A program made the translations under genes and the position numbers. This document shows, one piece after another, positions 1 to 31,850 of a DNA stretch of 62,572 nt. Position 1 is the stretch's first letter. Each line of letters opens with the position of its first letter. The notes under the pieces are model-generated. The model saw nothing but the letters and a program-made list of their open reading frames with translations. It was not told where the DNA came from and did no database searches. Source of the stretch: a virus (taxonomy: Duplodnaviria > Heunggongvirae > Uroviricota > Caudoviricetes); the IMG/VR virus record IMGVR_UViG_2671180890_000001. One strand, written 5' to 3'.

Positions 1-1745
1 ACTGCAGCAAAAAACAGCCAGGTTGCAGCAGCCCAAAGCGAGAGCGCGGCAGCCGGTTCTGCGACTTCAGCAGCTGGATCAGCAACTGCTGCGGCTAACA
101 GCCAGAAAGCTGCGAAGACGAGTGAAACTAACGCAAAGTCCAGCCAGACGGCAGCGAAGACCAGCGAAACGAATGCCAAAGCCAGTGAAACTGCGGCGAA
201 AAGCAGTCAGGATGCAGCGGCCCAAAGCGAGAGTGCCGCAGCCAGTTCTGCAAGCGCGGCGGCTGCTTCTGCCACTGCATCAGCTAACAGTCAAAAAGCA
301 GCAAAAACCAGTGAAACCAACGCAAAGGTGAGCGAAACAGCGGCTGCGAACTCAGCGAAAGCATCGGCAGCAAGCCAGACGGCAGCTAAAGCAAGCGAAG
401 ATGCAGCCAGAGAGTACGCAAGCCAGGCTGCGGAGCCGTATAAATATGTCTTACAGCCGCTGCCTGATGTGTGGATACCATTTAACGATTCGCTGGATAT
501 GATTACGGGCTTTTCGCCATCATATAAAAAAATTGTTATTGGTGACGATGAAATAACGATGCCTGGCGACAAGATTGTTAAGTTTAAACGTGCATCGAAA
601 GCAACCTATATTAACAAATCTGGTGTGCTGACAGAGGCTGCCATTGACGAGCCACGATTTGAACGTGATGGTCTGCTTATTGAGGGGCAAAGAACAAACT
701 ACATGCTCAATTCGGAAAGCCCTGCCAGTTGGGGGCGATCGTCAAATATGGATGTGCCCGAAACAGGGACGGATAATTTTGGTTTTACCTATGGAAAGTT
801 TGTCTGCAACGATTCTCTGATTGGGCAAACCTCAGCCATTAATATGGCATCAATTGCTGCAACAAAGTCAGTTGATGTCTCAGGCGATAATAAATATGTG
901 ACAACCTCATGTCGTTTTAAAACAGAACTGCAGGTAAGGTTGCGTATCCGGTTTGATAAATATGACGTAGCGCAACAACTTTTCTTGGTGATGCGTATAT
1001 TGATACACAAAACGCTTGAAATTAATATGACAGGCGGTGCTGCCTCAAGGATTACAGCGAGAGTCAGAAAGGACGAAGCTACCGGATGGATTTTTGCAGA
1101 GGCAACAATTCAGGCAATTGATGGGGAGTTAAAAATAGGTTCTCAGATACAGTATTCTCCTAAGCAGGGCGGGCAACCGTATCTGGTGACTATATTTATC
1201 TGGCCACCCCACAAGTAGAAAATGGGCCTTGTGTATCATCTTTTATTATATCAGGAACGACGGCGGCGACCCGCGCAAGCGATATAGTTACAGTTCCCAT
1301 TAAGAATAATTTTTATAATCTTCCTTTTACGGTTCTTTGTGAGGTACATAAGAACTGGTATAAAACGCCAAATGCAGCGCCGCGTGTTTTTGATACCGGC
1401 GGTCATCAAACCGGAGCGGCTATTATTCTTGGCTTCGGTTCTTCAGCAGATTACGACGGATTTCCTTATTGCGATATTGGAGGAGCTAACAGACGGGTAA
1501 ACGAAAACGCATCGCTTGAAAAAATGGTTATGGGATGCGTGTAAAGTCAGATCAGTCTACGTGCTCAGTAAGTAACGGCGTATATCCAGCGAAACAAAAA
1601 CCACATGGTCCTGTATTCAGAACACCGCAATTATCCGTATTGGAGGCCAGACTACAGCCGGGTTACGTCATTTATTTGGTCATGTCAGGAATTTCAGAAT
1701 ATGGCACAAGGCATTGACTGATGCTCAGGTGGGGAGTCAATCTAA
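1..1745 (+). pseudogene. stf: Side tail fibre gene, C-terminal two thirds, fold-back copy broken by homopolymer frameshifts
   Basis: Frame 1 translation matches the 793 aa product of 10583..12964(-) except at GG>G and AAA>AAAA sites near 970-1010 and an indel near 1185. Confidence 0.75.
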
Positions 1746-2026
1746 TGAAAGATTTAACACTCAAATTTGCCGACAGGGCCGACTTTTCGGCCTTTATGGA
1801 GAGTATTGGCTATTATGATGACGAGTCGATGCAGGATGATATTCTTATTGACGTGATAGGTAACGTGTACAAAGAAACCGGAGAACTTACTGAAGATGGC
1901 GAGCCGGTATGTGTTAAGGAAGACGGATATTTTGTAAACGTGCGCATCATTAATGATGCAAAAAAATCGTCAATATTCGATGAATACGTGGTTGCTGTTG
2001 AGCATCAACTTCGTGGCTGGATGTGA
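1745..2026 (+). CDS. Hypothetical acidic 93 aa protein (fold-back copy of 10302..10583)
   Basis: Identical translation to 10302..10583(-). Confidence 0.5.
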   Translation: MKDLTLKFADRADFSAFMESIGYYDDESMQDDILIDVIGNVYKETGELTEDGEPVCVKEDGYFVNVRIINDAKKSSIFDEYVVAVEHQLRGWM

Positions 2027-2035
2027 GGAAGAAAA

Positions 2036-3076
2036 ATGGCTACATCGACAGTAATTCCTGAAGACATCAAAACGCTAAAATCCGACGTTAGCAAATTAAA
2101 AAACGATCAAGGAAGCTACGCAACAAAATCATATGTAGACAGCAAAGATGAAACCGTTGGTGACTGGTCTGCTTCATGGTATCAGCAGGTATTGCCAACT
2201 AGCGGAGCTATATTTGGGAGAAAACTCCGCTCAACTCACCGGACGGCAGGTGTTGAGGATGCGTATTGCGAACTATACCTCAAAAAATGGATAGACAGTC
2301 CAGGTAACGCAATGGCGCGCCTTAACCTGAACGATAACGGGACAAACATTTGCTGGGACTTTACCAACCTTTATGGCGGTACGATGATTTTTCCCGGTGA
2401 CAGCGGATACCTCAAAATGGGTAACTGCCTTATGTCATACAGCAAGCGTGGAAGTAACGCGCTTATTAAATTTGATTACACCGACACATTACAGATCAAA
2501 TATGCCAATCATGGGTCAACCATGACATTAAACACACAGGGAACCGCTTATGCTGGTGTTACTGCTCAATTGTGGGGCAACTCCAGCCGTCCTGTTGTTT
2601 ATGAAGTCGGTGTTGATGGTGGCGCTTATATGTTCTATGCGCAGAAAAATACCGATAACACCTATATGTTAAGCGTTAATGGTGCATGTCATGCCACCGC
2701 ATTTAACCAGCATTCCGACCGGGATCTGAAAGACAACATTCAGGTGATCGATAATGCAACCGACCGCATCCGTAAAATGAACGGCTATACATACACGCTT
2801 AAAGAAAACGGTATGCCCTATGCTGGTGTCATTGCACAGGAAGCTCTGGAAGCAATCCCAGAAGTTGTAGGTTCCGCAGTGAAATATCAGGACGGTGCAA
2901 GCGGATCGGAAGGTGAAGAAGGTGAACGTTATTACACAGTAGATTATTCTGGTATTACTGGCTTGCTTGTTCAGGTAGCCAGAGAGTCAGACGACAGAAT
3001 AACAGCACTGGAAGAAGAAAACGCAGAATTAAAACAAAGATTATCTGCAATTGAGGCGGCGCTTGCGTCTAAATAA
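2036..3076 (+). CDS. Tail fibre or receptor-binding protein with C-terminal S74-type intramolecular chaperone domain (fold-back copy of 9252..10292)
   Basis: Identical 346 aa translation. Confidence 0.65.
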   Translation: MATSTVIPEDIKTLKSDVSKLKNDQGSYATKSYVDSKDETVGDWSASWYQQVLPTSGAIFGRKLRSTHRTAGVEDAYCELYLKKWIDSPGNAMARLNLNDNGTNICWDFTNLYGGTMIFPGDSGYLKMGNCLMSYSKRGSNALIKFDYTDTLQIKYANHGSTMTLNTQGTAYAGVTAQLWGNSSRPVVYEVGVDGGAYMFYAQKNTDNTYMLSVNGACHATAFNQHSDRDLKDNIQVIDNATDRIRKMNGYTYTLKENGMPYAGVIAQEALEAIPEVVGSAVKYQDGASGSEGEEGERYYTVDYSGITGLLVQVARESDDRITALEEENAELKQRLSAIEAALASK

Positions 3077-3103
3077 TATTAAGGGGCCGAGCGCCCCGTT
3101 TTA

Positions 3104-3412
3104 TTGGGTGGGATGAAAATGGATATAACACCTTTCCTTCATGCACTTTGTGCTGTGGCTGCGCAGGTACTGGTTGGTCTTTTTACCGGAAACTGGGCTT
3201 ACGGAGCGATAGCCGGTTGTACGTTCTTCATTGCGCGTGAACACACCCAGGCAGAATATCGCTGGATTGAAATGTTCGGGCATGGCAAGCGGATTAACAT
3301 GCCGTGGTGGGGCGGTTTTGATCCGCGCGTGTGGGATGTGGCAAGCCTGATGGATTTTGCTGTGCCGGTGGTGGCGTGTCTGCTGGTCTGGCTGTTGGTT
3401 TATCGTGGGTGA
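3104..3412 (+). CDS. Small membrane protein (fold-back copy of 8916..9224)
   Basis: Identical 102 aa translation, hydrophobic segments. Confidence 0.45.
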   Translation: MGGMKMDITPFLHALCAVAAQVLVGLFTGNWAYGAIAGCTFFIAREHTQAEYRWIEMFGHGKRINMPWWGGFDPRVWDVASLMDFAVPVVACLLVWLLVYRG

Positions 3413-3574
3413 AAAAAGGTGAGCTGTATATGCAACGGAGGAAGAAACCCCGTTGCTGGAAGCCTGGAAAAAGTATCGGGTGTTGTTGAATCGTGTTGAT
3501 ACATCACTATCTCCAGATATCGAGTGGCCAAGTCAACCATAAATCAATATCCCCTGCAATGCAGGGGATATTTC

Positions 3575-4540
3575 TTAATTATCAGTAGATTGTTCCTCTA
3601 GTAACAACTCAATTCTGCTTAGTATTTCTTTAGATATTTTTCGGCTATCAATTTTTATAGTTACAAAATTACCTTTATATCTAGCCGTGATCCCTTCCCC
3701 ATATTTTTTCTCGTCTTTTGTTTTTTCCTCGTCGCCAACCAGAACAGAGTCAGATAATATTTGTATAATCCGTGAAGCTTCTAAATCCTCGCCGTTTTTT
3801 TTAATTGCCAGAAGATGATGAGCAGCATTGCTCATGGCAGCCATGTTTTTTTTGTAGACCTTAAACAAAGAATCTCCAGCACGAGCTGACAGTTCTCCTG
3901 GATGATTGAAGATAGCTAATATATCTTTTGGTAGACCAGCTGTATTAATACAGCGAGTGATAATATTTCTGTCTATATTTTCAGCCTCGGCTAATGCTTT
4001 AACGTTACCATCAAAGTCATTTAGCTTGCGTAAGTATCTCTTTCCTCTTTCGTATGCACTAATAGGCCTATAATCGTTACCAATTTGGGATAACCAATGC
4101 ATCTGTTCATCGTCGAGATCACCTATTAAGACGCGATAGTCACATCCTGTTAATATCGCTGCTTTTCTTCTACGTGAGCCGTCAGCGACTTCAACGATTC
4201 CAGACACTTTTCTGGCGAAAGCTGGATTTTGTTGTCCAGACGTTAGAAAAGATGGGATTAAATCGGCTAGAGAGGATTCATTTAATAAATCTTGATCGCG
4301 TTCATTACCTAGCCATACCATTGTTGCCATTTCAACTTTATCTGCGGGAATTGTCTCTAACTTAAAGTTAACATTACGTCCGCATACTGGCAAAGTTATG
4401 CTGTTACCGGTTAATGAACTCAGTTGACGTTTTAAATCACCAACCATAGGTGATACGGGCTGATGTTCAGGGGCATGATGATTATTACTCATAATGCGAT
4501 TAATATCTGGAGCATTTTTTAGAAGAGAGCGCTGTTTCAT
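3575..4540 (-). CDS. sopB: SopB/ParB partition protein (fold-back copy)
   Basis: Identical to 7788..8753(+). Confidence 0.85.
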   Translation of the reverse strand: MKQRSLLKNAPDINRIMSNNHHAPEHQPVSPMVGDLKRQLSSLTGNSITLPVCGRNVNFKLETIPADKVEMATMVWLGNERDQDLLNESSLADLIPSFLTSGQQNPAFARKVSGIVEVADGSRRRKAAILTGCDYRVLIGDLDDEQMHWLSQIGNDYRPISAYERGKRYLRKLNDFDGNVKALAEAENIDRNIITRCINTAGLPKDILAIFNHPGELSARAGDSLFKVYKKNMAAMSNAAHHLLAIKKNGEDLEASRIIQILSDSVLVGDEEKTKDEKKYGEGITARYKGNFVTIKIDSRKISKEILSRIELLLEEQSTDN

Positions 4541-5707
4541 TATTCGTTCTCCCAGCGAGGTTTTATTAGATCATCAAAAATTTCTCGGCAAACAGGGTCC
4601 CATATAGAAACAGCATTTCTCCATGCATTCAATGTTGAACGTTGGTTTGCTGCTTGTTCAAATACTGTTCTCATTTTTATCTGGCCTTTACCTACTTCAT
4701 CGGTAACGCGTACAACCTGACGTAATACCATTGATCCCCATGTATTTCTTATTTGTTCTTCCATCCATCGTGATTGATTCCCTGTAGTGAGACTATATTT
4801 AGTCAGAAGTAAGCGAACGGTTGGCTCAAATCCACCTAGGTCAACGCTTTCCAATAGATCGAGAAGCATTGTGAAAAAACTGTAGAACAGAAGCGTAATC
4901 AAATAATTCTGCAGGTGTAGCAACAACAATAACGTCAGCGGCACAAACAACGTTAATGGTTCCTGTACCGAGGTTCGGAGCACTATCTATAACGATAACA
5001 TCGTAGTTATCCCAAACTGATTCAATAGCTGCGCGCAGCATAAGGTGTGGAGGATGAGGCAATTTACCCTGAGCATGATATTGCATGAGATCTGTTTCTA
5101 TACGATGTAAAGCTAGGCAGCTAGGGATAATGTCTAGCCCAGGCCAACATGTTGGCTTTATAGCATATTCAGCGTTATCGCGTTCTCCTAAGTAAAATGG
5201 CAGTAAAGTATCCTCGGCATGGATATGTAAATCAGGAACATAACCGTGATACATAGAGGCCGTGCCTTGAGGATCGTTACCTTCAACCAAAAGAACACGA
5301 TGACCTTGTAATGCTAACCATTGAGCTTGATGTACCGCAGACGATGTTTTATAAACGCCGCCTTTGTGTGACATAACGGCAAGCACAACAGGGTTTTTAT
5401 CTTGTGGTCGTTGGTTTGGGTTGCCAAAAACTGCTCGCATACTGTTGATTTGATCTATGGTATAACCAGCACGACGTTCAATTCTTCCTCTCATTTCAAA
5501 GTCAGGTGCAGGTAAACGCCCGCTCTTCTCAGCATCTCTAATTGCTTGAGGAGTTACACCAATTAAATCTGCTACTTCAGTTATACCCCATCGGCGGGTG
5601 ATACGCCGAGCTTCAGGACTATCATCACCGAATTGAGCGATAGCAATTGCTTGGGTCATTTCTTGACCTCTCGTAACACAATCTTGCAATAACTTTTTCA
5701 AAGACAT
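4540..5707 (-). pseudogene. sopA: SopA/ParA partition ATPase, fold-back copy with a 1-nt homopolymer frameshift (A6 here versus T5 in the primary copy near 7450)
   Basis: ORFs 4841..5707 and 4540..4983 together reproduce the 388 aa SopA of 6622..7788 in two frames. Confidence 0.8.
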
Positions 5708-6143
5708 ACTGTCATCTCCAGCTTGTAACTTTGCTTAATAATTAAATCTTTGCTTATTTCTAGCAAATTTGCATGAAAAAGGCAAAGCAAAACGAAAAAC
5801 GCAAAGGTGAATATTTGAGCTAAATCATCTTTTGTTCCCCTCCCGAAATGCATAAAACGAACAACGATATAATCATAACTAATTGATATTTATTATCTTT
5901 TTTAAAGAAAGGAAATCATGTAAAACTAGGGAAACATGATAAGAATCATCAATGAGATACGTTTTCTCTATTAGTTCTCCCAATCTTACCAATACGAGAA
6001 CATAAACAGAGAACATAAAAATCAAGTAATGATACAAACACAATAAAGAACATAAATAAAGAATTAAAACCAATGCTAAATAAAGCAGTACATAATATGA
6101 GAACATTACACCAAATGAGAACATTAATCAAGAACACAACGAA

Positions 6144-6185
6144 ACATAATTCCCCATTATACGTGCGTATAATGGGGAATTATGT
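6144..6185. repeat. Left hairpin telomere (telL) read-through: 20 bp arms around a non-self-complementary TG centre at 6164-6165
   Basis: ACATAATTCCCCATTATACG-TG-CGTATAATGGGGAATTATGT; arms closely resemble the N15 telO palindrome. Confidence 0.85.
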
Positions 6186-6189
6186 TTCG

Positions 6190-6460
6190 TTGTGTTCTTG
6201 ATTAATGTTCTCATTTGGTGTAATGTTCTCATATTATGTACTGCTTTATTTAGCATTGGTTTTAATTCTTTATTTATGTTCTTTATTGTGTTTGTATCAT
6301 TACTTGATTTTTATGTTCTCTGTTTATGTTCTCGTATTGGTAAGATTGGGAGAACTAATAGAGAAAACGTATCTCATTGATGATTCTTATCATGTTTCCC
6401 TAGTTTTACATGATTTCCTTTCTTTAAAAAAGATAATAAATATCAATTAGTTATGATTAT
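6190..6460. promoter_or_regulatory. AT-rich iteron array (about 6 copies of TATGTTCTC-like motif) between telL and sopA; candidate sop promoter or protelomerase/partition protein binding region
   Basis: Repeated ATGTTCTC / GTTGTGTTCT motifs read directly; the predicted ORFs here are mirror-symmetric and low complexity. Confidence 0.35.
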
Positions 6461-6621
6461 ATCGTTGTTCGTTTTATGCATTTCGGGAGGGGAACAAAAG
6501 ATGATTTAGCTCAAATATTCACCTTTGCGTTTTTCGTTTTGCTTTGCCTTTTTCATGCAAATTTGCTAGAAATAAGCAAAGATTTAATTATTAAGCAAAG
6601 TTACAAGCTGGAGATGACAGT

Positions 6622-7788
6622 ATGTCTTTGAAAAAGTTATTGCAAGATTGTGTTACGAGAGGTCAAGAAATGACCCAAGCAATTGCTATCGCTCAATTCG
6701 GTGATGATAGTCCTGAAGCTCGGCGTATCACCCGCCGATGGGGTATAACTGAAGTAGCAGATTTAATTGGTGTAACTCCTCAAGCAATTAGAGATGCTGA
6801 GAAGAGCGGGCGTTTACCTGCACCTGACTTTGAAATGAGAGGAAGAATTGAACGTCGTGCTGGTTATACCATAGATCAAATCAACAGTATGCGAGCAGTT
6901 TTTGGCAACCCAAACCAACGACCACAAGATAAAAACCCTGTTGTGCTTGCCGTTATGTCACACAAAGGCGGCGTTTATAAAACATCGTCTGCGGTACATC
7001 AAGCTCAATGGTTAGCATTACAAGGTCATCGTGTTCTTTTGGTTGAAGGTAACGATCCTCAAGGCACGGCCTCTATGTATCACGGTTATGTTCCTGATTT
7101 ACATATCCATGCCGAGGATACTTTACTGCCATTTTACTTAGGAGAACGCGATAACGCTGAATATGCTATAAAGCCAACATGTTGGCCTGGGCTAGACATT
7201 ATCCCTAGCTGCCTAGCTTTACATCGTATAGAAACAGATCTCATGCAATATCATGCTCAGGGTAAATTGCCTCATCCTCCACACCTTATGCTGCGCGCAG
7301 CTATTGAATCAGTTTGGGATAACTACGATGTTATCGTTATAGATAGTGCTCCGAACCTCGGTACAGGAACCATTAACGTTGTTTGTGCCGCTGACGTTAT
7401 TGTTGTTGCTACACCTGCAGAATTATTTGATTACGCTTCTGTTCTACAGTTTTTCACAATGCTTCTCGATCTATTGGAAAGCGTTGACCTAGGTGGATTT
7501 GAGCCAACCGTTCGCTTACTTCTGACTAAATATAGTCTCACTACAGGGAATCAATCACGATGGATGGAAGAACAAATAAGAAATACATGGGGATCAATGG
7601 TATTACGTCAGGTTGTACGCGTTACCGATGAAGTAGGTAAAGGCCAGATAAAAATGAGAACAGTATTTGAACAAGCAGCAAACCAACGTTCAACATTGAA
7701 TGCATGGAGAAATGCTGTTTCTATATGGGACCCTGTTTGCCGAGAAATTTTTGATGATCTAATAAAACCTCGCTGGGAGAACGAATAA
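6622..7788 (+). CDS. sopA: SopA/ParA partition ATPase, F-plasmid SopA type
   Basis: 388 aa; Walker-type KGGVYKTS motif; near full-length resemblance to F SopA (from memory). Confidence 0.95.
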   Translation: MSLKKLLQDCVTRGQEMTQAIAIAQFGDDSPEARRITRRWGITEVADLIGVTPQAIRDAEKSGRLPAPDFEMRGRIERRAGYTIDQINSMRAVFGNPNQRPQDKNPVVLAVMSHKGGVYKTSSAVHQAQWLALQGHRVLLVEGNDPQGTASMYHGYVPDLHIHAEDTLLPFYLGERDNAEYAIKPTCWPGLDIIPSCLALHRIETDLMQYHAQGKLPHPPHLMLRAAIESVWDNYDVIVIDSAPNLGTGTINVVCAADVIVVATPAELFDYASVLQFFTMLLDLLESVDLGGFEPTVRLLLTKYSLTTGNQSRWMEEQIRNTWGSMVLRQVVRVTDEVGKGQIKMRTVFEQAANQRSTLNAWRNAVSIWDPVCREIFDDLIKPRWENE

Positions 7789-8753
7789 TGAAACAGCGCT
7801 CTCTTCTAAAAAATGCTCCAGATATTAATCGCATTATGAGTAATAATCATCATGCCCCTGAACATCAGCCCGTATCACCTATGGTTGGTGATTTAAAACG
7901 TCAACTGAGTTCATTAACCGGTAACAGCATAACTTTGCCAGTATGCGGACGTAATGTTAACTTTAAGTTAGAGACAATTCCCGCAGATAAAGTTGAAATG
8001 GCAACAATGGTATGGCTAGGTAATGAACGCGATCAAGATTTATTAAATGAATCCTCTCTAGCCGATTTAATCCCATCTTTTCTAACGTCTGGACAACAAA
8101 ATCCAGCTTTCGCCAGAAAAGTGTCTGGAATCGTTGAAGTCGCTGACGGCTCACGTAGAAGAAAAGCAGCGATATTAACAGGATGTGACTATCGCGTCTT
8201 AATAGGTGATCTCGACGATGAACAGATGCATTGGTTATCCCAAATTGGTAACGATTATAGGCCTATTAGTGCATACGAAAGAGGAAAGAGATACTTACGC
8301 AAGCTAAATGACTTTGATGGTAACGTTAAAGCATTAGCCGAGGCTGAAAATATAGACAGAAATATTATCACTCGCTGTATTAATACAGCTGGTCTACCAA
8401 AAGATATATTAGCTATCTTCAATCATCCAGGAGAACTGTCAGCTCGTGCTGGAGATTCTTTGTTTAAGGTCTACAAAAAAAACATGGCTGCCATGAGCAA
8501 TGCTGCTCATCATCTTCTGGCAATTAAAAAAAACGGCGAGGATTTAGAAGCTTCACGGATTATACAAATATTATCTGACTCTGTTCTGGTTGGCGACGAG
8601 GAAAAAACAAAAGACGAGAAAAAATATGGGGAAGGGATCACGGCTAGATATAAAGGTAATTTTGTAACTATAAAAATTGATAGCCGAAAAATATCTAAAG
8701 AAATACTAAGCAGAATTGAGTTGTTACTAGAGGAACAATCTACTGATAATTAA
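7788..8753 (+). CDS. sopB: SopB/ParB centromere-binding protein
   Basis: 321 aa; ParB motif GSRRRKAA; start overlaps sopA stop (TAATGA). Confidence 0.9.
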   Translation: MKQRSLLKNAPDINRIMSNNHHAPEHQPVSPMVGDLKRQLSSLTGNSITLPVCGRNVNFKLETIPADKVEMATMVWLGNERDQDLLNESSLADLIPSFLTSGQQNPAFARKVSGIVEVADGSRRRKAAILTGCDYRVLIGDLDDEQMHWLSQIGNDYRPISAYERGKRYLRKLNDFDGNVKALAEAENIDRNIITRCINTAGLPKDILAIFNHPGELSARAGDSLFKVYKKNMAAMSNAAHHLLAIKKNGEDLEASRIIQILSDSVLVGDEEKTKDEKKYGEGITARYKGNFVTIKIDSRKISKEILSRIELLLEEQSTDN

Positions 8754-8754
8754 G

Positions 8755-8783
8755 AAATATCCCCTGCATTGCAGGGGATATTG
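8755..8783. terminator. Bidirectional hairpin terminator after sopB
   Basis: Perfect inverted repeat ATATCCCCTGC-A-TTGCAGGGGATAT. Confidence 0.5.
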
Positions 8784-8915
8784 ATTTATGGTTGACTTGG
8801 CCACTCGATATCTGGAGATAGTGATGTATCAACACGATTCAACAACACCCGATACTTTTTCCAGGCTTCCAGCAACGGGGTTTCTTCCTCCGTTGCATAT
8901 ACAGCTCACCTTTTT

Positions 8916-9224
8916 TCACCCACGATAAACCAACAGCCAGACCAGCAGACACGCCACCACCGGCACAGCAAAATCCATCAGGCTTGCCACATCCCACACG
9001 CGCGGATCAAAACCGCCCCACCACGGCATGTTAATCCGCTTGCCATGCCCGAACATTTCAATCCAGCGATATTCTGCCTGGGTGTGTTCACGCGCAATGA
9101 AGAACGTACAACCGGCTATCGCTCCGTAAGCCCAGTTTCCGGTAAAAAGACCAACCAGTACCTGCGCAGCCACAGCACAAAGTGCATGAAGGAAAGGTGT
9201 TATATCCATTTTCATCCCACCCAA
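8916..9224 (-). CDS. Small integral membrane protein, function unknown
   Basis: 102 aa ORF with hydrophobic segments; start uncertain. Confidence 0.45.
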   Translation of the reverse strand: MGGMKMDITPFLHALCAVAAQVLVGLFTGNWAYGAIAGCTFFIAREHTQAEYRWIEMFGHGKRINMPWWGGFDPRVWDVASLMDFAVPVVACLLVWLLVYRG

Positions 9225-9251
9225 TAAAACGGGGCGCTCGGCCCCTTAATA

Positions 9252-10292
9252 TTATTTAGACGCAAGCGCCGCCTCAATTGCAGATAATCTTTGTTTTAAT
9301 TCTGCGTTTTCTTCTTCCAGTGCTGTTATTCTGTCGTCTGACTCTCTGGCTACCTGAACAAGCAAGCCAGTAATACCAGAATAATCTACTGTGTAATAAC
9401 GTTCACCTTCTTCACCTTCCGATCCGCTTGCACCGTCCTGATATTTCACTGCGGAACCTACAACTTCTGGGATTGCTTCCAGAGCTTCCTGTGCAATGAC
9501 ACCAGCATAGGGCATACCGTTTTCTTTAAGCGTGTATGTATAGCCGTTCATTTTACGGATGCGGTCGGTTGCATTATCGATCACCTGAATGTTGTCTTTC
9601 AGATCCCGGTCGGAATGCTGGTTAAATGCGGTGGCATGACATGCACCATTAACGCTTAACATATAGGTGTTATCGGTATTTTTCTGCGCATAGAACATAT
9701 AAGCGCCACCATCAACACCGACTTCATAAACAACAGGACGGCTGGAGTTGCCCCACAATTGAGCAGTAACACCAGCATAAGCGGTTCCCTGTGTGTTTAA
9801 TGTCATGGTTGACCCATGATTGGCATATTTGATCTGTAATGTGTCGGTGTAATCAAATTTAATAAGCGCGTTACTTCCACGCTTGCTGTATGACATAAGG
9901 CAGTTACCCATTTTGAGGTATCCGCTGTCACCGGGAAAAATCATCGTACCGCCATAAAGGTTGGTAAAGTCCCAGCAAATGTTTGTCCCGTTATCGTTCA
10001 GGTTAAGGCGCGCCATTGCGTTACCTGGACTGTCTATCCATTTTTTGAGGTATAGTTCGCAATACGCATCCTCAACACCTGCCGTCCGGTGAGTTGAGCG
10101 GAGTTTTCTCCCAAATATAGCTCCGCTAGTTGGCAATACCTGCTGATACCATGAAGCAGACCAGTCACCAACGGTTTCATCTTTGCTGTCTACATATGAT
10201 TTTGTTGCGTAGCTTCCTTGATCGTTTTTTAATTTGCTAACGTCGGATTTTAGCGTTTTGATGTCTTCAGGAATTACTGTCGATGTAGCCAT
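9252..10292 (-). CDS. Second tail fibre or receptor-binding protein with C-terminal peptidase S74-type intramolecular chaperone domain
   Basis: 346 aa; C-terminal SDRDLKDNI ... YTVDYSGITGLLVQ ... coiled-coil tail typical of auto-cleaving fibre chaperone domains. Confidence 0.7.
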   Translation of the reverse strand: MATSTVIPEDIKTLKSDVSKLKNDQGSYATKSYVDSKDETVGDWSASWYQQVLPTSGAIFGRKLRSTHRTAGVEDAYCELYLKKWIDSPGNAMARLNLNDNGTNICWDFTNLYGGTMIFPGDSGYLKMGNCLMSYSKRGSNALIKFDYTDTLQIKYANHGSTMTLNTQGTAYAGVTAQLWGNSSRPVVYEVGVDGGAYMFYAQKNTDNTYMLSVNGACHATAFNQHSDRDLKDNIQVIDNATDRIRKMNGYTYTLKENGMPYAGVIAQEALEAIPEVVGSAVKYQDGASGSEGEEGERYYTVDYSGITGLLVQVARESDDRITALEEENAELKQRLSAIEAALASK

Positions 10293-10301
10293 TTTTCTTC
10301 C

Positions 10302-10583
10302 TCACATCCAGCCACGAAGTTGATGCTCAACAGCAACCACGTATTCATCGAATATTGACGATTTTTTTGCATCATTAATGATGCGCACGTTTACAAAATA
10401 TCCGTCTTCCTTAACACATACCGGCTCGCCATCTTCAGTAAGTTCTCCGGTTTCTTTGTACACGTTACCTATCACGTCAATAAGAATATCATCCTGCATC
10501 GACTCGTCATCATAATAGCCAATACTCTCCATAAAGGCCGAAAAGTCGGCCCTGTCGGCAAATTTGAGTGTTAAATCTTTCAT
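10302..10583 (-). CDS. Hypothetical acidic protein between the two fibre genes
   Basis: 93 aa ORF; start overlaps stf stop. Confidence 0.5.
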   Translation of the reverse strand: MKDLTLKFADRADFSAFMESIGYYDDESMQDDILIDVIGNVYKETGELTEDGEPVCVKEDGYFVNVRIINDAKKSSIFDEYVVAVEHQLRGWM

Positions 10584-12964
10584 TAGATTGACTCCCCCAC
10601 CTGAGCATCAGTCAATGCCTTGTGCCATATTCTGAAATTCCTGACATGACCAAATAAATGACGTAACCCGGCTGTAGTCTGGCCTCCAATACGGATAATT
10701 GCGGTGTTCTGAATACAGGACCATGTGGTTTTTGTTTCGCTGGATATACGCCCGTTACTTACTGAGCACGTAGACTGATCTGACTTTACACGCATCCCCA
10801 TAACCATTTTTTCAAGCGATGCGTTTTCGTTTACCCGTCTGTTAGCTCCTCCAATATCGCAATAAGGAAATCCGTCGTAATCTGCTGAAGAACCGAAGCC
10901 AAGAATAATAGCCGCTCCGGTTTGATGACCGCCGGTATCAAAAACACGCGGCGCTGCATTTGGCGTTTTATACCAGTTCTTATGTACCTCACAAAGAACC
11001 GTAAAAGGAAGATTATAAAAATTATTCTTAATGGGAACTGTAACTATATCGCTTGCGCGGGTCGCCGCCGTCGTTCCTGATATAATAAAAGATGATACAC
11101 AAGGCCCATTTTCTACTTGTGGGGTGGCCAGATAAATATAGTCACCAGATACGGTTGCCCCGCCCTGCTTAGGAGAATACTGTATCTGAGAACCTATTTT
11201 TAACTCCCCATCAATTGCCTGAATTGTTGCCTCTGCAAAAATCCATCCGGTAGCTTCGTCCTTTCTGACTCTCGCTGTAATCCTTGAGGCAGCACCGCCT
11301 GTCATATTAATTTCAAGCGTTTGTGTATCAATATACGCATCACCAAGAAAAGTTGTTGCGCTACCGTCATATTTATCAAACCGGATACGCAACCTTACCT
11401 GCAGTTCTGTTTTAAAACGACATGAGGTTGTCACATATTTATTATCGCCTGAGACATCAACTGACTTTGTTGCAGCAATTGATGCCATATTAATGGCTGA
11501 GGTTTGCCCAATCAGAGAATCGTTGCAGACAAACTTTCCATAGGTAAAACCAAAATTATCCGTCCCTGTTTCGGGCACATCCATATTTGACGATCGCCCC
11601 CAACTGGCAGGGCTTTCCGAATTGAGCATGTAGTTTGTTCTTTGCCCCTCAATAAGCAGACCATCACGTTCAAATCGTGGCTCGTCAATGGCAGCCTCTG
11701 TCAGCACACCAGATTTGTTAATATAGGTTGCTTTCGATGCACGTTTAAACTTAACAATCTTGTCGCCAGGCATCGTTATTTCATCGTCACCAATAACAAT
11801 TTTTTTATATGATGGCGAAAAGCCCGTAATCATATCCAGCGAATCGTTAAATGGTATCCACACATCAGGCAGCGGCTGTAAGACATATTTATACGGCTCC
11901 GCAGCCTGGCTTGCGTACTCTCTGGCTGCATCTTCGCTTGCTTTAGCTGCCGTCTGGCTTGCTGCCGATGCTTTCGCTGAGTTCGCAGCCGCTGTTTCGC
12001 TCACCTTTGCGTTGGTTTCACTGGTTTTTGCTGCTTTTTGACTGTTAGCTGATGCAGTGGCAGAAGCAGCCGCCGCGCTTGCAGAACTGGCTGCGGCACT
12101 CTCGCTTTGGGCCGCTGCATCCTGACTGCTTTTCGCCGCAGTTTCACTGGCTTTGGCATTCGTTTCGCTGGTCTTCGCTGCCGTCTGGCTGGACTTTGCG
12201 TTAGTTTCACTCGTCTTCGCAGCTTTCTGGCTGTTAGCCGCAGCAGTTGCTGATCCAGCTGCTGAAGTCGCAGAACCGGCTGCCGCGCTCTCGCTTTGGG
12301 CTGCTGCAACCTGGCTGTTTTTTGCTGCAGTTTCACTGGCTTTAGCATTCGTTTCGCTGGTCTTCGCTGCCGTCTGGCTGGACTTTGCGTTGGTTTCGCT
12401 CGTCTTTGCGGCTGTCTCGCTATTTTTCGCGTTGGTTTCTGATTTTTTAGCTGCTGTCGCGGAGTTTGCCGATGCAGTCTGTGAGGTCGCTGCCGCCTGT
12501 GCGCTGTTAGCTGCATTCGTTTCTGAGGTTTTCGCCGCGTTCTTCGATGATGCCGCTGCAGTTTCGGATTTCTTTGCCGCCGCTGCGCTCTGAGAAGCGG
12601 CTTCGGCGTTGCGTGCCGCTTCTTCCACCATTTCCTGAAAACGGCGCAATGCCTCCGGCATGACATCATCTTCCGTCATGGCACCGAGAAAATCATTCAG
12701 CGTACCTGGTCTGGAGCCTTCATAGACGGTAATGGTCCCGGCATGTGAAGGCGGAAAACCTTCAACCAGCAGGGTGACGCTGTACTGGCCATACTCAACA
12801 TCCATGCTGTAACGCCCGGCTTCATCAGGATTTTCAGAGGCCACCGTGTTCACCAGTACCGTGGTGCTGTTACGCTTTGCCTTCAGTTGAATAGTGCAGT
12901 TCTGTATTGGTTTTCCCGCACCATCTTTCAGCACACCTGAGATTTTTACTGCTGCCATATCCAC
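10583..12964 (-). CDS. stf: Side tail fibre protein: lambda Stf-like N-terminus, Ala/Ser-rich tandem repeats, divergent C-terminal domain
   Basis: 793 aa; N-terminal KISGVLKDG...SHAGTITVYE as in lambda Stf; repeats of KTSETNAKxSxTAA. Confidence 0.85.
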   Translation of the reverse strand: MDMAAVKISGVLKDGAGKPIQNCTIQLKAKRNSTTVLVNTVASENPDEAGRYSMDVEYGQYSVTLLVEGFPPSHAGTITVYEGSRPGTLNDFLGAMTEDDVMPEALRRFQEMVEEAARNAEAASQSAAAAKKSETAAASSKNAAKTSETNAANSAQAAATSQTASANSATAAKKSETNAKNSETAAKTSETNAKSSQTAAKTSETNAKASETAAKNSQVAAAQSESAAAGSATSAAGSATAAANSQKAAKTSETNAKSSQTAAKTSETNAKASETAAKSSQDAAAQSESAAASSASAAAASATASANSQKAAKTSETNAKVSETAAANSAKASAASQTAAKASEDAAREYASQAAEPYKYVLQPLPDVWIPFNDSLDMITGFSPSYKKIVIGDDEITMPGDKIVKFKRASKATYINKSGVLTEAAIDEPRFERDGLLIEGQRTNYMLNSESPASWGRSSNMDVPETGTDNFGFTYGKFVCNDSLIGQTSAINMASIAATKSVDVSGDNKYVTTSCRFKTELQVRLRIRFDKYDGSATTFLGDAYIDTQTLEINMTGGAASRITARVRKDEATGWIFAEATIQAIDGELKIGSQIQYSPKQGGATVSGDYIYLATPQVENGPCVSSFIISGTTAATRASDIVTVPIKNNFYNLPFTVLCEVHKNWYKTPNAAPRVFDTGGHQTGAAIILGFGSSADYDGFPYCDIGGANRRVNENASLEKMVMGMRVKSDQSTCSVSNGRISSETKTTWSCIQNTAIIRIGGQTTAGLRHLFGHVRNFRIWHKALTDAQVGESI

Positions 12965-12967
12965 TCC

Positions 12968-13000
12968 ACAAAAAAGCCCGCCTGAACCGGCGGGCTGTCA
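12968..13000 (-). terminator. Rho-independent terminator downstream of lom
   Basis: GCCCGCC/GGCGGGC stem followed by a T-run on the minus strand. Confidence 0.5.
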
Positions 13001-13022
13001 TAACACTGTGTTACCTGGCTAA

Positions 13023-13622
13023 TCAGAATTTATAACCGACACCCACGATGAAACCGTCAGTGCGCCAGTCACCACTGCCGGAGCCTTCATAAGCAATATC
13101 AATGGCCACGGATTCGGTCGGGTTAAACTGCACGCCAGCCCCCCACGCCAGAGACGTGTTGCTGTGGCGACCGTCATCACTTCCGGTCAGCACATCGTGC
13201 GTTTTCCCCTTGCTGTCAGTTACGCGGAGATAATCCCCGGAAAAAGTCGAAACACGGCTGTAAGCCACACCTGCCATCGCATAAGCACTGAACCATTCAT
13301 TCACGCGTACAGACGGCCCCGCCATCATGCTGAACCAGCGGTTACGCACTGAATCTTCATGCCAGCGGGTATCGCTGTAATGCGTTTTTTGCTCATCTTT
13401 GGCATTGGCATAACTGAATGACGTCACCAGCCCCAGCGTGTCCGTAAATTCATAACGGTATTTCACGTTAATGCCCTTCAGGTCATCGTTGCCGGGCATA
13501 TCAGTATGGGTCTGAAGATACCCGGCGCTTAGTGTGGACTGATGCTCTGCTGCGCTCGCTGGCGTACCAGCGGCGACCAGCCAGACTACTGTGGACAGAA
13601 TAACAGCACATAATTTACGCAT
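13023..13622 (-). CDS. lom: Lom-family outer membrane protein (Ail/Lom)
   Basis: 199 aa; signal peptide; C-terminal AYEGSGSGDWRTDGFIVGVGYKF as in lambda Lom. Confidence 0.85.
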   Translation of the reverse strand: MRKLCAVILSTVVWLVAAGTPASAAEHQSTLSAGYLQTHTDMPGNDDLKGINVKYRYEFTDTLGLVTSFSYANAKDEQKTHYSDTRWHEDSVRNRWFSMMAGPSVRVNEWFSAYAMAGVAYSRVSTFSGDYLRVTDSKGKTHDVLTGSDDGRHSNTSLAWGAGVQFNPTESVAIDIAYEGSGSGDWRTDGFIVGVGYKF

Positions 13623-13635
13623 AATTACCTCTCGC

Positions 13636-13668
13636 TTTTCTGCAATAAAAAAGGCGCCATTTCTGGCG
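13636..13668 (-). terminator. Rho-independent terminator downstream of J
   Basis: GGCGCCA-TTTC-TGGCGCC hairpin followed by a T-run on the minus strand. Confidence 0.45.
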
Positions 13669-13689
13669 CCCGTATCTGGGTTATAAAAT

Positions 13690-16600
13690 TCAGCTGATAC
13701 TGATGCCTGCAGTGGCTTTCTTCATCACAACAACCAGCAAATCGCTGATACTTGCTGTGGGATACCAGCCATTTACCCACCATGCTGATACAGAAAACTC
13801 CAGTGTCATTACGCCACTGCCTGCAGGCATATCAATAACACCCGTGTAAATCAGAGTATTATCCAGAGCCGTTCGGTTATAAATTTCAGCCCCGTTTTTC
13901 TTCACTATCAGGCGGCATGACGAATAAGTATCGCTATTCTCCCGTTCATGTCTGGCACCGCTGAAAGCCACCGCTGGAATAACAATTTGCCGGTCAAACG
14001 GCTGATCGTCATAAACCCTGACGGTAATGGTCCCTGATGGCCACCGCTCCGGTGCACGGGAGTCCCGGGGGAAAGCTTTGCCCACTGTTTTAACGAGATC
14101 GCCTTCAATCTGGTTCGCGGACAGTTTTCCCAGAACCCGACAGTTCTCGTTAATCGTGACGTTGTTGAGCGTCCCGGAGTTCGCATTCACGCTACCGCTG
14201 ATATCGGCATTTTTCGCCGTCAGCCGCCCGTCCGGTGTCAGGGAAAATGCCGGAGGATTACCGCCGCTGGTAATGGTGGGAGCCGTCAGATATTTCAGGA
14301 ACACTTCATTCATGAATATCTGGTTGCCCTGCGCCACAAACATCGGCGTTTCATTCCCGTTTGCCGGGTCAATAAACGCGATACGGTTAGCGGCAACCAG
14401 GAACTGACTCAGTTTGCCTTCCTCCGTATCCTCCATGCTGAGGCCAAGCCCCGCGACATAATGTTTGCCGTCTTTGGTCTGCTCAATTTTGACGCCCCAC
14501 ATGGCATTCCATTTATCGTTGGCATCTTTCCACTCTTTCGAAAACTCATCCAGTCTGCTGGCGTTATCCTCCGTCAGGTCGACTTTTTCCAGCAGCTCCT
14601 TGCCGAGATGGGATTCGGTTATCTGGCCTTTGAAAAAATCCAGGTAACCTTCTGCATCATCGCTCGCCCGACCGACAGCCTCCACGAATGCCGATTTGCC
14701 AACGGTGTTCACACTGCGGATGTAAAAATAATAATCATGGCCCGGCTTGATATTGATACTGGCGGCTATCCAGTACAGCGCCGTACCAAGATAACGTGCG
14801 CTGGTTTCAACCTGCCTGATATCCGTAATCCGCTTTTCCGAGAACCAGAACTCAAACTGTACCGTCGGATCATAAACGGCAAGATGCGGCGTTGCGGTTA
14901 TCTGAAAATAGCCCGGCGTCAGCTCAATCCGCGACGGTGCTGCCGGTGCGGCAATCCGGAACGATACCGACGCCGGATCTCCCTGCTGCCCCCACGCATT
15001 TACCGCCCGGACTGTCAGCCTGTAGTTCCCCAGCGCCAGTTGCGTGAAGCGGTATGTGGTTTCCGTCGTCCGGGCCGTGCTGACCAGCCGCTCACTGCCG
15101 TCGTCCGCTGTTACGGTCAGACGGAGCAGGAAGCTCACGCCCTTCACCACCTTCGGTGTGTCCCATCGCGCCAGCACCTGATATTCCCCGCTGTCTGCAG
15201 TGACTTCTGCGGTCAGGTGCTGCACCGCTGGCGGCGTGACACCGTTCACCGTGCCACTCTGTTCGCCGTCAAAGTGCGCCCCGTTATCCACGATGGCCTC
15301 TTTTTCCGGCACATGCTGCACGGCGGTGATGGCATACGTGCCGTCGTCGTTCTCACGGATACTCACGCAGCGGAACAGTCGCTGGCGCAGCGTCGGCAGC
15401 TTCAGCCCCCATACGCTGTATTCAGCAACACCGTCAGGAACACGGCTCACTTTTACCTTCACGCCGTCGGTGACGGACTGAACCTCCACGCTGACCGGAT
15501 TGCCACTTCCGTCAACCAGGCTTATCAGCGTGGTACCGGAGGATGGCAGCGTGATTTCACGGTCGAGCGTCAGCGTCCGGGTCTGGCTGTTCACCGCCAG
15601 CACACGACCACCGGTGCTGATACCGGCATAGTCATCATCACAGATTTCAATAACATCGCCCGGTACATGGCGAAGCCCTTCTGCGCCGACGCTGAAATCC
15701 ACGGTCTGCGTTTCCAGCAGTTCTGTTTTAATCAGCCACAGCCCGGCGCGGTGTGCCTGCCCCCGGCTGGTACAGCCAAAGGCGTCCATCTTCGTGACGT
15801 TACGACCGTAACGGAGAATGGCCTGCGTATCTTCAACAAGCTCTGTCGCCGTCTCCCAGCCGTTGTTCGGGTCAATCCAGTTCACCTCAACGGCATTATG
15901 GCGGTCCTTCAGGGCGCTGAAACTGTAGCGGAACGGCGCGCCATCATCCGGCATCACCACATTACTGCGGTTATAGGTCCACACCTTATCCGACGGCCGG
16001 TCCTGCACGAACGTCAGCGTCTGCCCGTTCCATACCGGCATACAGCGCATCGCCGAGCAGAAATCACTGAGCACATCCCACGCCTTGCGCTGTGTGGTCA
16101 GGTAAGCGTTACAGGTGATGCGCGGCTCCGTGCCGCCAAAGCCGTCCGGCACCGACTGGTCGCAGTACTGGCCGATGACATACAGCGCCCATTTATCCAC
16201 ATCCGCCGCACCAAGACGTTTCCCCATGCCGTAGCGCGGATGGGTCAGCATATCCCACAGACACCAGGCCATGTTGTTGCTGTATGCCGGTTTAAACGTC
16301 CCGTCCCAGATACCGCTGTATTGCCGCGTCTGCGGGTTATAGTTCGACGGCACCTGCAGAATGCGCCCGCGAAGATGATAATTACGGCTCACCTGCTGGC
16401 TGCCGAACTGCTCCGAATCCACCTGTACGCCGACCAGTGCCGTGTTCGGGTAGCCCTGTTTCACATCGATGATTTCGGTGTATGACGACCAGAGCGTTTT
16501 GTTCTGCAGCTGGTCTGTGGTGCTGTCCGGCGTCATCCTGCGCATCCGGATATTAAACGGGCGCGGCGGCAGGTTATCCACCACCACCGAGGCCAGATAC

Positions 16601-17085
16601 TGCGAGGTGGTTTTGCCCTTAATGGTGATGTCTTTTTCTGTCACCCAGCCACCGTTACGCTGTATCTGAACCAGCAGGCGGACTTCCGATGGATTCCTGT
16701 CCCCCTTTGAGGTGGTTTCCACCAGTGCCTGCACACCGAAGGTAAAGCGCAGACGGTCGATGTTTGCCGACGTGATGGTCCGGGTGATCGGCGTGTCATA
16801 TTTCACTTCCGTACCCAGCACCGTCTCGGAACCGGAGGATTCAAATCCCTCCGGCGGTGTCTGCTCCTGCTCACCTGCCCGGAACACCACCGTGACACCG
16901 GAGATGTTGGTATTCCCCTCACTGTCCAGCACCGGTGTACTGTTCAGCAGCACGCTTTTTAATCCATCCACCGGACCTTCAATCGGCCCTTCGCTGATGG
17001 CATCGATCACACTCAGTAACTGCGTGGATTTCAGGTTATCCTTCGCTTCGCGCGGGGTATGCCCCTTACTGCTGCCTTTACCCAT
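13690..17085 (-). CDS. J: Tail tip / host specificity protein J with a non-lambda C-terminal receptor-binding region
   Basis: 1131 aa; lambda J-like from [19 protein letters not shown] through about residue 980, then divergent last ~150 aa. Confidence 0.95.
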
Positions 17086-17145
17086 TCGTCATGCTCCATA
17101 AACGACAAAACCGCCCGGAGGCGGTTTCACATAAAACATTTTGCA

Positions 17146-17817
17146 TCAGCGACCAATCACCACAACCTGACCACCGTCCCCTTCGTCTGCCGTGCTGATC
17201 TCCTGAGAAACCACCCGCGACCCCACACGCATTTCACCGTACAGAACAGGCAGAACATTGCCCTGAGCAACCATGTTATCCAGTGAGGAAAAATAGGTGT
17301 TCTGTTTGCCGTTATCCGTTGTCTGTGTACGGGGAGTTCTGGCTTTCGGTGCCAGCATCTGCGCCACACCACCGAGCACCATACTGGCACCGAGAGAAAA
17401 CAGGATGCCGGTCATACCACCGGCCCCAATGGCTGCCCCCCATGCTGCAAGGGTGGCTCCGGCAGTAAAGAATGATCCGGCAATGGCGGCAGCTCCCAGG
17501 ACAATCTGGAATACACCACCTGACTTGGCCCCGGCGACTCTGGGAACAATATGAATCACAGCGCCATCAGGCAGAGTCTCATGTAACTGCGCCGTTAATC
17601 CGGACGTGCTGACATCCCGCCCGGCAATCCGTACCTGATACCAGCCGTCGCTCAGTTTCTGACGAAACGCCGGGAGCTGTGTGGCCAGTGCGCGGATGGC
17701 TTCAGCCCCCGTTTTCACACGAAGGTCGATGCGGCGGCCAAATCGTTGCAAATCCCCGTAAAGGCAGATGCGTGCCATTCCCGGTGACGCCAGAGGGAGT
17801 GTGTGCGTCGCTGCCAT
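17146..17817 (-). CDS. I: Tail assembly protein I
   Basis: 223 aa, lambda I-like. Confidence 0.9.
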   Translation of the reverse strand: MAATHTLPLASPGMARICLYGDLQRFGRRIDLRVKTGAEAIRALATQLPAFRQKLSDGWYQVRIAGRDVSTSGLTAQLHETLPDGAVIHIVPRVAGAKSGGVFQIVLGAAAIAGSFFTAGATLAAWGAAIGAGGMTGILFSLGASMVLGGVAQMLAPKARTPRTQTTDNGKQNTYFSSLDNMVAQGNVLPVLYGEMRVGSRVVSQEISTADEGDGGQVVVIGR

Positions 17818-18458
17818 TTGTCGGTATACCTCTCTCGTTTACTCAGTTGTTCAGGAATATGGTGCAGCAGCTCGCCATCACCACAGTAAATGGCGGCATG
17901 ATTCGGCACCGATGAACCAAAGCAGCACAGCAGCACGTCGCCAGGCTGCGCCTCTGTCAGTGCGACACGGTAAAAACCAGTCGCCTCCATATTGTCAAGA
18001 TAGAGATTCTGACCGTTACGCCACCAGTCATCCCCGCGATGAAAATCCGGCATCTCAATCCCCGCCAGATGATAAGCATCCCGGAACAGCGTGTAACAGT
18101 CCGTCACCCCGTGCTCAAAGCGACGCCCGGTGAGATGCGGCACACAGCGGAACTTGTGAATCGCCCCCCGGCAGACCAGCCACCACGGCAAATCACTCTG
18201 CACCTGCAGCCGCCGGTCAGCCTCACTCAGCCAGGGCAGACCACCGGGATGACTGTGGACCAGTGCCACAATCTCACCCTGCATCTCTGCCTGCAGCCAG
18301 TCCTCCGGAGCCATCCGGAAATAATCCTCCGGCTCACCGGAGATATTCACGCAGGGGAAATATCTTTCCCCCTCCGGCGCTCTCACCACGAAGCCGCACG
18401 ACTCCGCTGGCGCACATCGCCGGGCGTGCGCCAGAATCGCTGATTCTGTCTCTGTCAT
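17715..18458 (-). CDS. K: Tail assembly protein K (NlpC/P60-like)
   Basis: Lambda K-like; ORF start may be upstream of the true start. Confidence 0.85.
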   Translation of the reverse strand: MTETESAILAHARRCAPAESCGFVVRAPEGERYFPCVNISGEPEDYFRMAPEDWLQAEMQGEIVALVHSHPGGLPWLSEADRRLQVQSDLPWWLVCRGAIHKFRCVPHLTGRRFEHGVTDCYTLFRDAYHLAGIEMPDFHRGDDWWRNGQNLYLDNMEATGFYRVALTEAQPGDVLLCCFGSSVPNHAAIYCGDGELLHHIPEQLSKRERYTDKWQRRTHSLWRHREWHASAFTGICNDLAAASTFV

Positions 18459-18463
18459 GGGAT

Positions 18464-22880: not shown

Positions 22881-22895
22881 CGCTGACTCTCCGGA

Positions 22896-23636: not shown

Positions 23637-23643
23637 AGCGTCC

Positions 23644-24613: not shown

Positions 24614-24624
24614 ACATCCCCCTT

Positions 24625-24978: not shown

Positions 24979-24989
24979 AGCGCCTCCCG

Positions 24990-25385: not shown

Positions 25386-25426
25386 GGACTCCTCCACAGA
25401 GAGAAAATGGCCCCGAAGGGCCATGA

Positions 25427-26452: not shown

Positions 26453-26507
26453 AAAAAAATCCCGTAAAAAAAGCCGCACAGGCGGCCTTTAGTGATGAAG
26501 GGTAAGG

Positions 26508-26840: not shown

Positions 26841-26849
26841 AAACATCCC

Positions 26850-28169: not shown

Positions 28170-31850
<3,681 letters not shown>

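Follow-up and report, generated by a model that had tools for sequence, protein, structure and literature searches.

The 62,572-bp stretch of DNA analysed here (the window) is very probably a long-read contig that ran past both hairpin ends of a linear phage-plasmid, and the 13 places at which its duplicated arms disagree are, with the same high likelihood, leftover sequencing errors and not biology. The arm differences are thus a technical error map in redundant sequence, not sequence variation, and are biologically irrelevant.

A repeat scan revealed two giant perfect palindromes in the window, with 2-nt centres at 6164/6165 and 54546/54547. We worked out the overall layout by BLAST, comparing the sequence outside the palindrome centres to the reverse complement (rc) of the sequence between them. 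The stretch between the centres is a primary copy of the genome, and the remainder is a mirror consisting of rc(46940-54545) joined directly to rc(6166-12754):

6166-54545, + strand: primary copy, the complete phage-plasmid genome of 48,380 bp between the two telomeres
54548-62572 then 1-6163, + strand: whole mirror, 14,188 bp
54548-62151, + strand: right mirror arm, rc of 46940-54545, with a second intact telN and a frameshifted, truncated repA
54738-56633: the second, intact telN in the right mirror arm
62152-62572, + strand: outer part of the left mirror arm, rc of 12333-12754 (stf N-terminal region), running seamlessly into position 1
1-6163, + strand: inner part of the left mirror arm, rc of 6166-12331, with a broken stf, sopB and a frameshifted sopA
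3575-4540, - strand: mirror sopB
4540-5707, - strand: mirror sopA, frameshifted
62151/62152: blunt join of the arm tips, rc of 46940 to rc of 12754

Because the end and the start of the window are contiguous in the coordinate system of the mirror, the window is a circularised contig. Its arms are 100% complementary except for 13 one-base indels, and the duplication begins exactly at the telomere. The 34,185 bp of unique sequence that the arm-tip join bypasses (12755-46939) are exactly the non-duplicated part of the genome. No microhomology, which we sought as a cause of recombination or of a graph merge, was present at the 62151/62152 join, and none of the complete E. coli genomes in RefSeq contained the join (best cover, 50%).

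The primary copy carries the following genes and telomeres:

6622-7788, + strand: sopA, whose product is identical at 388/388 residues to RefSeq WP_001533178.1
7788-8753, + strand: sopB, whose product has a SoPB_HTH domain
10583-12964, - strand: stf tail fibre gene, 793 aa, intact
44924-48919, + strand: repA, 1331 aa, intact, with Toprim and ori-binding matches
52460-54355, - strand: telN, a 631-aa ORF adjoining the right palindrome centre
6154-6175: left (sop-side) telomere, telO-like core CCATTATACG-TG-CGTATAATGG, palindrome centre 6164/6165
54536-54557: right (telN-side) telomere, telO-like core CCATTATACG-CA-CGTATAATGG, palindrome centre 54546/54547

The telN ORF matches TelK_N, TelK_muzzle, ResT-TelK_cat and TelK_stirrup above Pfam cut-offs, and its product is identical over 631/631 residues to the RefSeq protelomerase of E. 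albertii plasmid pEA8_3. The RepA homologue is annotated CyRepA1 in relatives. Lambda-like virion and lysis genes (tail, head and terminase) are also present in the primary copy, and positions 12755-37000 align at 97.4% to pS159-3, a plasmid with genes for terminase, portal, capsid, tail, J and lysis.

The sequence at both palindrome centres, CCATTATACG-NN-CGTATAATGG, is the N15 telO core. Phage PhiR46_1 has the same 22-mer core at both ends, annotated there as telL and telR, and an N15 telR hairpin oligonucleotide contains cccattatacgcgcgtataatggg (PMC12624138). The joined ends rebuild a 42-bp palindrome, and the right centre lies 191 bp from the start of telN. Since both centres fall in a telO core and one of them adjoins an intact protelomerase gene, the palindromes can be taken to mark covalently closed hairpin telomeres. 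Folding back of the contig at telO points in turn to a molecule that would be physically linear, with covalently closed hairpin ends. Because gene content and telO core both fit, the element can be assigned, on its sequence, to the N15-like telomere phage-plasmids, with a prophage of 48.4 kb.

Like the window, N15, phiKO2, PY54 and PhiR46_1 have a protelomerase gene beside a telomere-resolution palindrome with the N15 telO core, and RepA, SopAB and the lambda-like virion genes occur in the window in the order of the N15-type linear prophage map. The arm regions are covered at 99.7% identity by pEA8_3, and to 77% at 98.5% identity by PhiR46_1. N15 itself differs, its nucleotide similarity to the window being only ~79% over a short immA segment. 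The stf/tail-fibre module is common to lambdoid phages that are not telomere phages, such as Tritos and 2G7b.

Each mirror arm was aligned globally to the reverse complement of its partner. All 13 differences proved to be run-length indels of 1 nt, with 0 substitutions and 0 multi-base indels; the mirror carries 10 deletions and 3 insertions. The right arm (7,606 bp) has 2 differences and the left arm (6,592 bp) has 11, and by gene they divide into 10 in stf and one each in sopA, repA and a non-coding RNA region. All are given below on the + strand of the mirror, followed by the primary run:

R1, 58207-58208: GG versus CCC at 50884-50886; isrK-like RNA, non-coding
R2, 61250-61255: T6 versus A7 at 47836-47842; mirror repA frameshifted
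L1, 62167-62168: GG versus CCC at 12737-12739 (stf); also wrong in NZ_LT906558.1
L2, 62217-62218: CC versus a single G at 12688 (stf); insertion in the mirror
L3, 62335-62336: AA versus TTT at 12569-12571 (stf)
L4, 62534: G versus CC at 12370-12371 (stf)
L5, 967: G versus CC at 11364-11365 (stf)
L6, 1009-1012: A4 versus T3 at 11320-11322 (stf); insertion in the mirror
L7, 1171-1173: G3 versus C4 at 11158-11161 (stf)
L8, 1532-1534: G3 versus C4 at 10796-10799 (stf)
L9, 1577-1578: G2 versus C3 at 10751-10753 (stf)
L10, 1731-1734: G4 versus C5 at 10594-10598 (stf 3' end)
L11, 4874-4879: A6 versus T5 at 7450-7454; mirror sopA frameshifted; also wrong in NZ_LT906558.1

An earlier note on this DNA had described the mirror arms as differing from the primary copy by homopolymer-length indels only. 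The alignment confirmed that the differences exist, that every one of them is a change in run length and that substitutions are absent; three of the 13 sites, however, lie in runs of just 1-2 nt (G>GG, CC>C and CC>C) and, though run-length changes, are not homopolymers as the term is usually understood. The note had placed nine of the 13 sites correctly to within 0-30 nt. These include the sopA site (put at ~4871-4876), the repA T6/A7 site, the indel between 50734 and 50939 (at 50884-50886) and, in stf, the GG>G change at 967, the AAA>AAAA change at 1009-1012 and the indel at 1171-1173, given as lying near 1185. The indels reported near 62200, 62330 and 62540 are also real, although they correspond to four sites (62167-8, 62217-8, 62335-6 and 62534) and not three. 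One of the pair at 62167 and 62217 had therefore been missed, together with L8, L9 and L10. The error rate is 13 per 14,188 bp, or ~1 per 1,090 bp (1 per 600 bp in the left arm and 1 per 3,800 bp in the right), so the proposed figure of one error per 300-500 bp overstates the overall rate 2-3-fold; a density of 1 per 216 bp is reached only in the 2.2 kb at the tip of the left arm.

Comparison to relatives indicates which of the two copies is wrong. At 13/13 sites the run length of the primary copy was matched by every relative (3-5 relatives per site, phages as well as plasmids). The primary right arm aligned to pEA8_3 with 22 mismatches and 0 gaps over 7,606 bp, and its mirror showed the same 22 mismatches plus its own 2 gaps; likewise, the primary stf region aligned to phage Tritos with 63 mismatches and 0 gaps over 3,933 bp, to which the mirror adds indels. 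Mirror sopA frameshifts after codon 277, into stops, and the mirror has only fragments of stf and repA, both of which are whole in the primary copy; the earlier statement that it is the primary ORF that stays intact is thus true of sopA, stf and repA. Its attribution of the differences to an uncorrected long-read consensus is likewise supported by the lack of substitutions, by the agreement of relatives with the primary copy at all 13 sites and by the gap-free primary alignments, and further by the intact primary SopA and the occurrence of the same indels in two independent assemblies.

A related discrepancy occurs in the unique part of the genome:

24381-24385, + strand: C5 in the primary copy versus C6 in three relatives; gpZ-like tail gene split

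The gpZ-like tail gene is divided there into ORFs at 24368-24613 and 24036-24377. As judged from the sequence, the C5 run is probably a residual run-length error, the alternative being a real frameshift. This frameshift and the arm comparison together suggest that the assembly was made without short-read polishing.

The errors are unevenly distributed. The first 1.29 kb from the hairpin is error-free in both arms, and 11/13 errors fall in the 38% of arm length that is more than 4.4 kb away from it (binomial p ~8e-4). The left arm is far richer in errors than the right (11 in 6.6 kb versus 2 in 7.6 kb), an asymmetry that a simple coverage-decay model does not predict. With reference to the + strand of the window, deletions fell in G runs in 8/10 cases and in C runs in 0/10 (p ~0.003-0.009), whereas G and C runs are equally common (520 versus 540). 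A/T runs of at least 3 nt outnumber G/C runs 3-4-fold, yet they hold 4/13 errors. We considered whether the strand bias could be traced to one physical strand or to a platform and dropped the idea, given that records are oppositely oriented and that fold-back reads are self-complementary. A hairpin cause, the rise of errors towards the arm tips and the strand bias did not figure in the earlier note.

These features recall the homopolymer consensus errors of long reads: the changes involve single-base run length exclusively, deletions exceed insertions (10 versus 3), and errors recur in particular contexts and are strand-asymmetric. The three window sites in runs of 1-2 nt set the arm errors apart from the usual homopolymer errors.

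The same pattern recurs among deposited sequences. One is the 61,544-bp linear record NZ_LT906558.1 (E. coli RL465 plasmid III), which ends in inverted arms of 9.2 and 6.6 kb and whose telO cores are CG-centred. Its arms differ from its genome by 13 single-base run indels and 0 substitutions, and the annotation of its mirror either shows telN, repA and sopA as fragments or omits them. It has two error sites in common with the window (sopA T5/T6 and stf CCC/CC), compared to a chance expectation that we estimate at ~0.06 coincident sites for random errors over ~2,700 runs; these contexts are therefore systematically error-prone. CP088738.1 (pB16EC1020-1; 77,165 bp, deposited as circular) combines a genome of 47,910 bp with a bluntly joined mirror of 29,251 bp. 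Its 55 indels and 1 substitution lie nearly all within ~2 kb on either side of the join, and on the + strand of the record almost every deleted base is C or T. The gradient of errors away from the hairpin was also seen in CP088738.1 and, more weakly, in NZ_LT906558.1. Both records thus resemble the window in having a primary genome with mirror arms, run-length indels confined to the mirror and mirror genes annotated as fragments. They differ from it in coming from other strains (~97-98% identity), in arm lengths and in their CG apex, and NZ_LT906558.1 also in having been deposited as a linear molecule with free arms.

A CG-centred 42-mer had 14 exact matches in PLSDB, and 18 matches in all. 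Two telO palindromes occurred in each of five records of 61-81 kb, and for this reason we regard the artefact as common in public data. Comparable fold-back has been described for long-read assemblers under the name 'hairpin overlaps' in work on Autocycler (PMC12460055), and Oxford Nanopore (ONT) assemblies of Borrelia replicons with hairpin telomeres show terminal inverse duplications of 5-18 kb (10.1101/2025.07.18.665644). In these cases, as in the window, the contig passes a closed end onto the opposite strand and gains a kilobase-scale inverted duplication starting from the telomere; the window's arms of 6.6-7.6 kb fall inside the Borrelia range. Unlike those cases, the window represents an enterobacterial N15-like phage-plasmid in which the two overhangs are joined, so that the contig reads as circular.

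The fold-back itself would follow from the hairpin telomeres of the element. A long read that reaches a hairpin tip would carry on along the complementary strand, and the assembler could thereby have extended the contig beyond both telomeres, creating two palindromes centred on the telomere-resolution core. The overhanging arms of 7.6 and 6.6 kb would then have been abutted and the contig reported as a 62,572-bp circle; the join may reflect abutted contig overhangs, or else a collapsed graph path that passed through the unique edge a single time. The primary copy, covered by ordinary reads of both strands, would have obtained a clean consensus. The mirror arms would be backed solely by fold-back reads, which should become scarcer with distance from the hairpin and map ambiguously, and it is presumably because the arms rest on these rarer reads that their consensus keeps strand-specific run-length errors. 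At the arm tips, under-calling of run length by a few reads of one orientation would not be cancelled. We infer the coverage, read orientation, platform and polishing history that enter into this explanation.

Four other origins of the inverted arms have to be weighed. Replication of such an element proceeds through a circular dimeric intermediate that is normally resolved by TelN, and the palindromes could mainly be its real telLL and telRR head-to-head junctions, with the indels still being consensus errors. Such junctions are identical in sequence to hairpin read-through, and the palindrome data fit both equally. We nevertheless consider this origin unlikely: circular dimers are transient and rare compared to resolved linear prophage DNA, and terminal inverse duplications are routine for hairpin replicons in long-read assemblies. 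It would, moreover, leave the verdict on the 13 differences unchanged.

Very unlikely, in our view, is that the 14.2-kb mirror is a co-resident deletion derivative, that is, a small linear plasmid that retains telN, sopAB and the 3' portion of repA, with its junction at 62151/62152. The clean, blunt join would suit such a molecule, as would the viability of ~14-kb linear miniplasmid constructs with partition genes, telN and repA in related phages (PMC10612081). Against it, the mirror repA is without its N-terminal 672 codons, and the join, as noted above, is missing from all the E. coli genomes searched. The other fold-back records also argue against a derivative: in CP088738.1 the blunt join sits elsewhere, with errors piled up on both sides as abutted low-coverage contig ends would give, and in NZ_LT906558.1 the same arms are not joined but form free contig ends.

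Chimeric inverted reads do occur in long-read data, and the fold-backs might in principle be generic library or sequencing chimeras (read-through from template to complement at random double-strand ends, or amplification) with no link to telomeres. We rejected random chimeras, which we hold to be even less probable than a deletion derivative, because both centres lie on the telO core to the base, 48,380 bp (the full genome length) apart, and the same two centres are found in at least 5 other public records of related elements. Least probable of all, and close to negligible, is a genuine duplication (a palindromic plasmid) in which the 13 differences are real pseudogenising mutations: its sole support is that the copies differ and that one copy per gene is broken, whereas real divergence is ruled out by the occurrence of 0 substitutions in 14.2 kb alongside 13 frameshifting run-length changes, the mirror is always the deviant copy, the errors are strand-biased and concentrated towards the arm tips, an unrelated assembly has errors at identical sites, and the palindrome centres are the exact protelomerase target and would be cut in vivo.

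Read-through of both hairpin ends, the preferred origin, has direct consequences for annotation. Fold-back of this kind is a known technical artefact for which trimming at the inversion point is the standard remedy. The mirror arms (54548-62572 and 1-6163) should accordingly be cut off and the replicon described as linear, hairpin-ended and 48,380 bp long, and the broken mirror copies of sopA, stf and repA should not be annotated as pseudogenes. Several PLSDB/RefSeq records (61-81 kb, with two telO palindromes) share the mis-assembly and are sometimes labelled 'circular', which inflates plasmid sizes and gene counts for N15-like telomere phage-plasmids. A useful by-product of the fold-back is that it fixes both telomere positions to the base.

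The sole remaining point with some biological content is the dinucleotide at the apex of the hairpins. The palindrome centres read TG (6164-5) and CA (54546-7); neither is self-complementary, and they constitute the only substitution-like break in the mirror symmetry. In every relative examined, by contrast, the apex is CG (44 cores in retrieved loci plus the 14 exact 42-mer matches in PLSDB), and CG is also read at the apex of NZ_LT906558.1 and CP088738.1, two other unpolished fold-back assemblies. Searches of PLSDB, E. coli RefSeq and IMG/VR returned no TG-centred telO in any other record; a CG-centred control query worked, and a degenerate telO scan of IMG/VR and GTDB genomes found the CG centre only. 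A methylation-type CGCG>CGTG miscall acting genome-wide was rejected as the cause: the primary copy keeps 169 CGCG and 7 CGCGCG, and 0/22 mismatches to pEA8_3 fall in that context.

Random substitutions arising independently at both apexes are unlikely in arms that otherwise contain none, which leaves either a consensus artefact of the hairpin tip or a real C>T change at the telRL centre. We rate a true C>T variant at the exact centre of the telomere-resolution site as a minority prospect, somewhat doubtful on the sequence at hand. Two points count against a real variant: all the other telO sites examined are CG, and the hairpin tip is a plausible spot for a consensus artefact. In its favour, a single telRL mutation accounts for both ends, which are complementary as such a mutation predicts; the 169 normally called CGCG sites and the CG apex of the two other unpolished fold-back assemblies speak on the same side. 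TelK and TelN cut with a stagger of 6 bp, and by our own reasoning a staggered cut of this length around an asymmetric centre would leave one end with TG and the other with CA, the arrangement observed. If the variant is true, TelN must tolerate an asymmetric centre, and each hairpin tip would exist in 'flip' and 'flop' orientations that swap at every replication, comparable to the telomeres of parvoviruses and poxviruses. Similar single-base mismatches at hairpin centres have been described in Borrelia (preprint 10.1101/2025.07.18.665644).

Several public 61-81 kb 'plasmid' records are fold-back mis-assemblies of N15-like phage-plasmids of the kind seen in the window. Two palindromes of the telomere-resolution site, telO, occur in each of NZ_LT906558.1, CP088738.1, NZ_CP019258.1, CP088562.1, CP088810.1 and NZ_CP126957.1, and the mirror genes are fragmented in both records that we checked for this feature (NZ_LT906558.1 and CP088738.1). 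Some of these 61-81 kb fold-back records carry the label 'circular'. The errors in the mirror arms show a strong strand asymmetry in both the window and CP088738.1: G-run deletions on the + strand in the window, and C/T deletions on the + strand of the CP088738.1 record. The two records are in opposite orientation and, once this is allowed for, both sets of errors would correspond to runs of pyrimidines on one and the same physical strand.

In the window, the two mirror arms meet at a blunt junction (62151-62152) that joins the reverse complement of 46940 to that of 12754, with no bases common to both arms, and leaves out a unique middle of 34,185 bp. This junction was not found in any E. coli complete genome searched. 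At the telomeres, the central dinucleotides of both palindromes are non-self-complementary (TG at 6164-6165 and CA at 54546-54547), whereas CG forms the centre of all related telO examined; searches of PLSDB, E. coli RefSeq and IMG/VR found no TG-centred telO copy. The TG/CA apex is either a genuine asymmetric telRL centre or a consensus artefact at the hairpin tip.

In the non-mirrored, unique part of the genome, a C5 run at 24381-24385, which is C6 in three relatives, breaks a gpZ-like tail gene into two ORFs:

24368-24613, minus strand, gpZ-like tail gene fragment
24036-24377, minus strand, gpZ-like tail gene fragment

The C5 run is probably a residual homopolymer error, or else the prophage is truly defective.

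Two Rfam matches, both scoring above the gathering score, are flanked by a 270-aa ORF and icd/bro genes:

50872-50947, isrK, 52.8 bits
50974-51061, C4 antisense RNA, 82.3 bits

The stretch with these matches looks like an immA-type anti-immunity RNA region, such as N15 and P1 likewise possess. R1, one of the run-length differences between the mirror and primary copies, lies inside the first stem-loop of isrK.

The stf and tail-fibre module (8822-12754) reflects mosaic exchange of the host-range module: it shares 98% identity with Tritos, PhiR63_1 and 2G7b, which are non-telomere lambdoid phages, and for the sop genes beside it the matches are to other N15-like plasmids. Within stf are direct repeats of ~230 nt each, with ~84% identity. 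The G+C content shifts sharply, from 54-59% in the lambda-like virion genes (~12000-32000) to 35-49% elsewhere, where the plasmid, telomere and regulatory functions lie.
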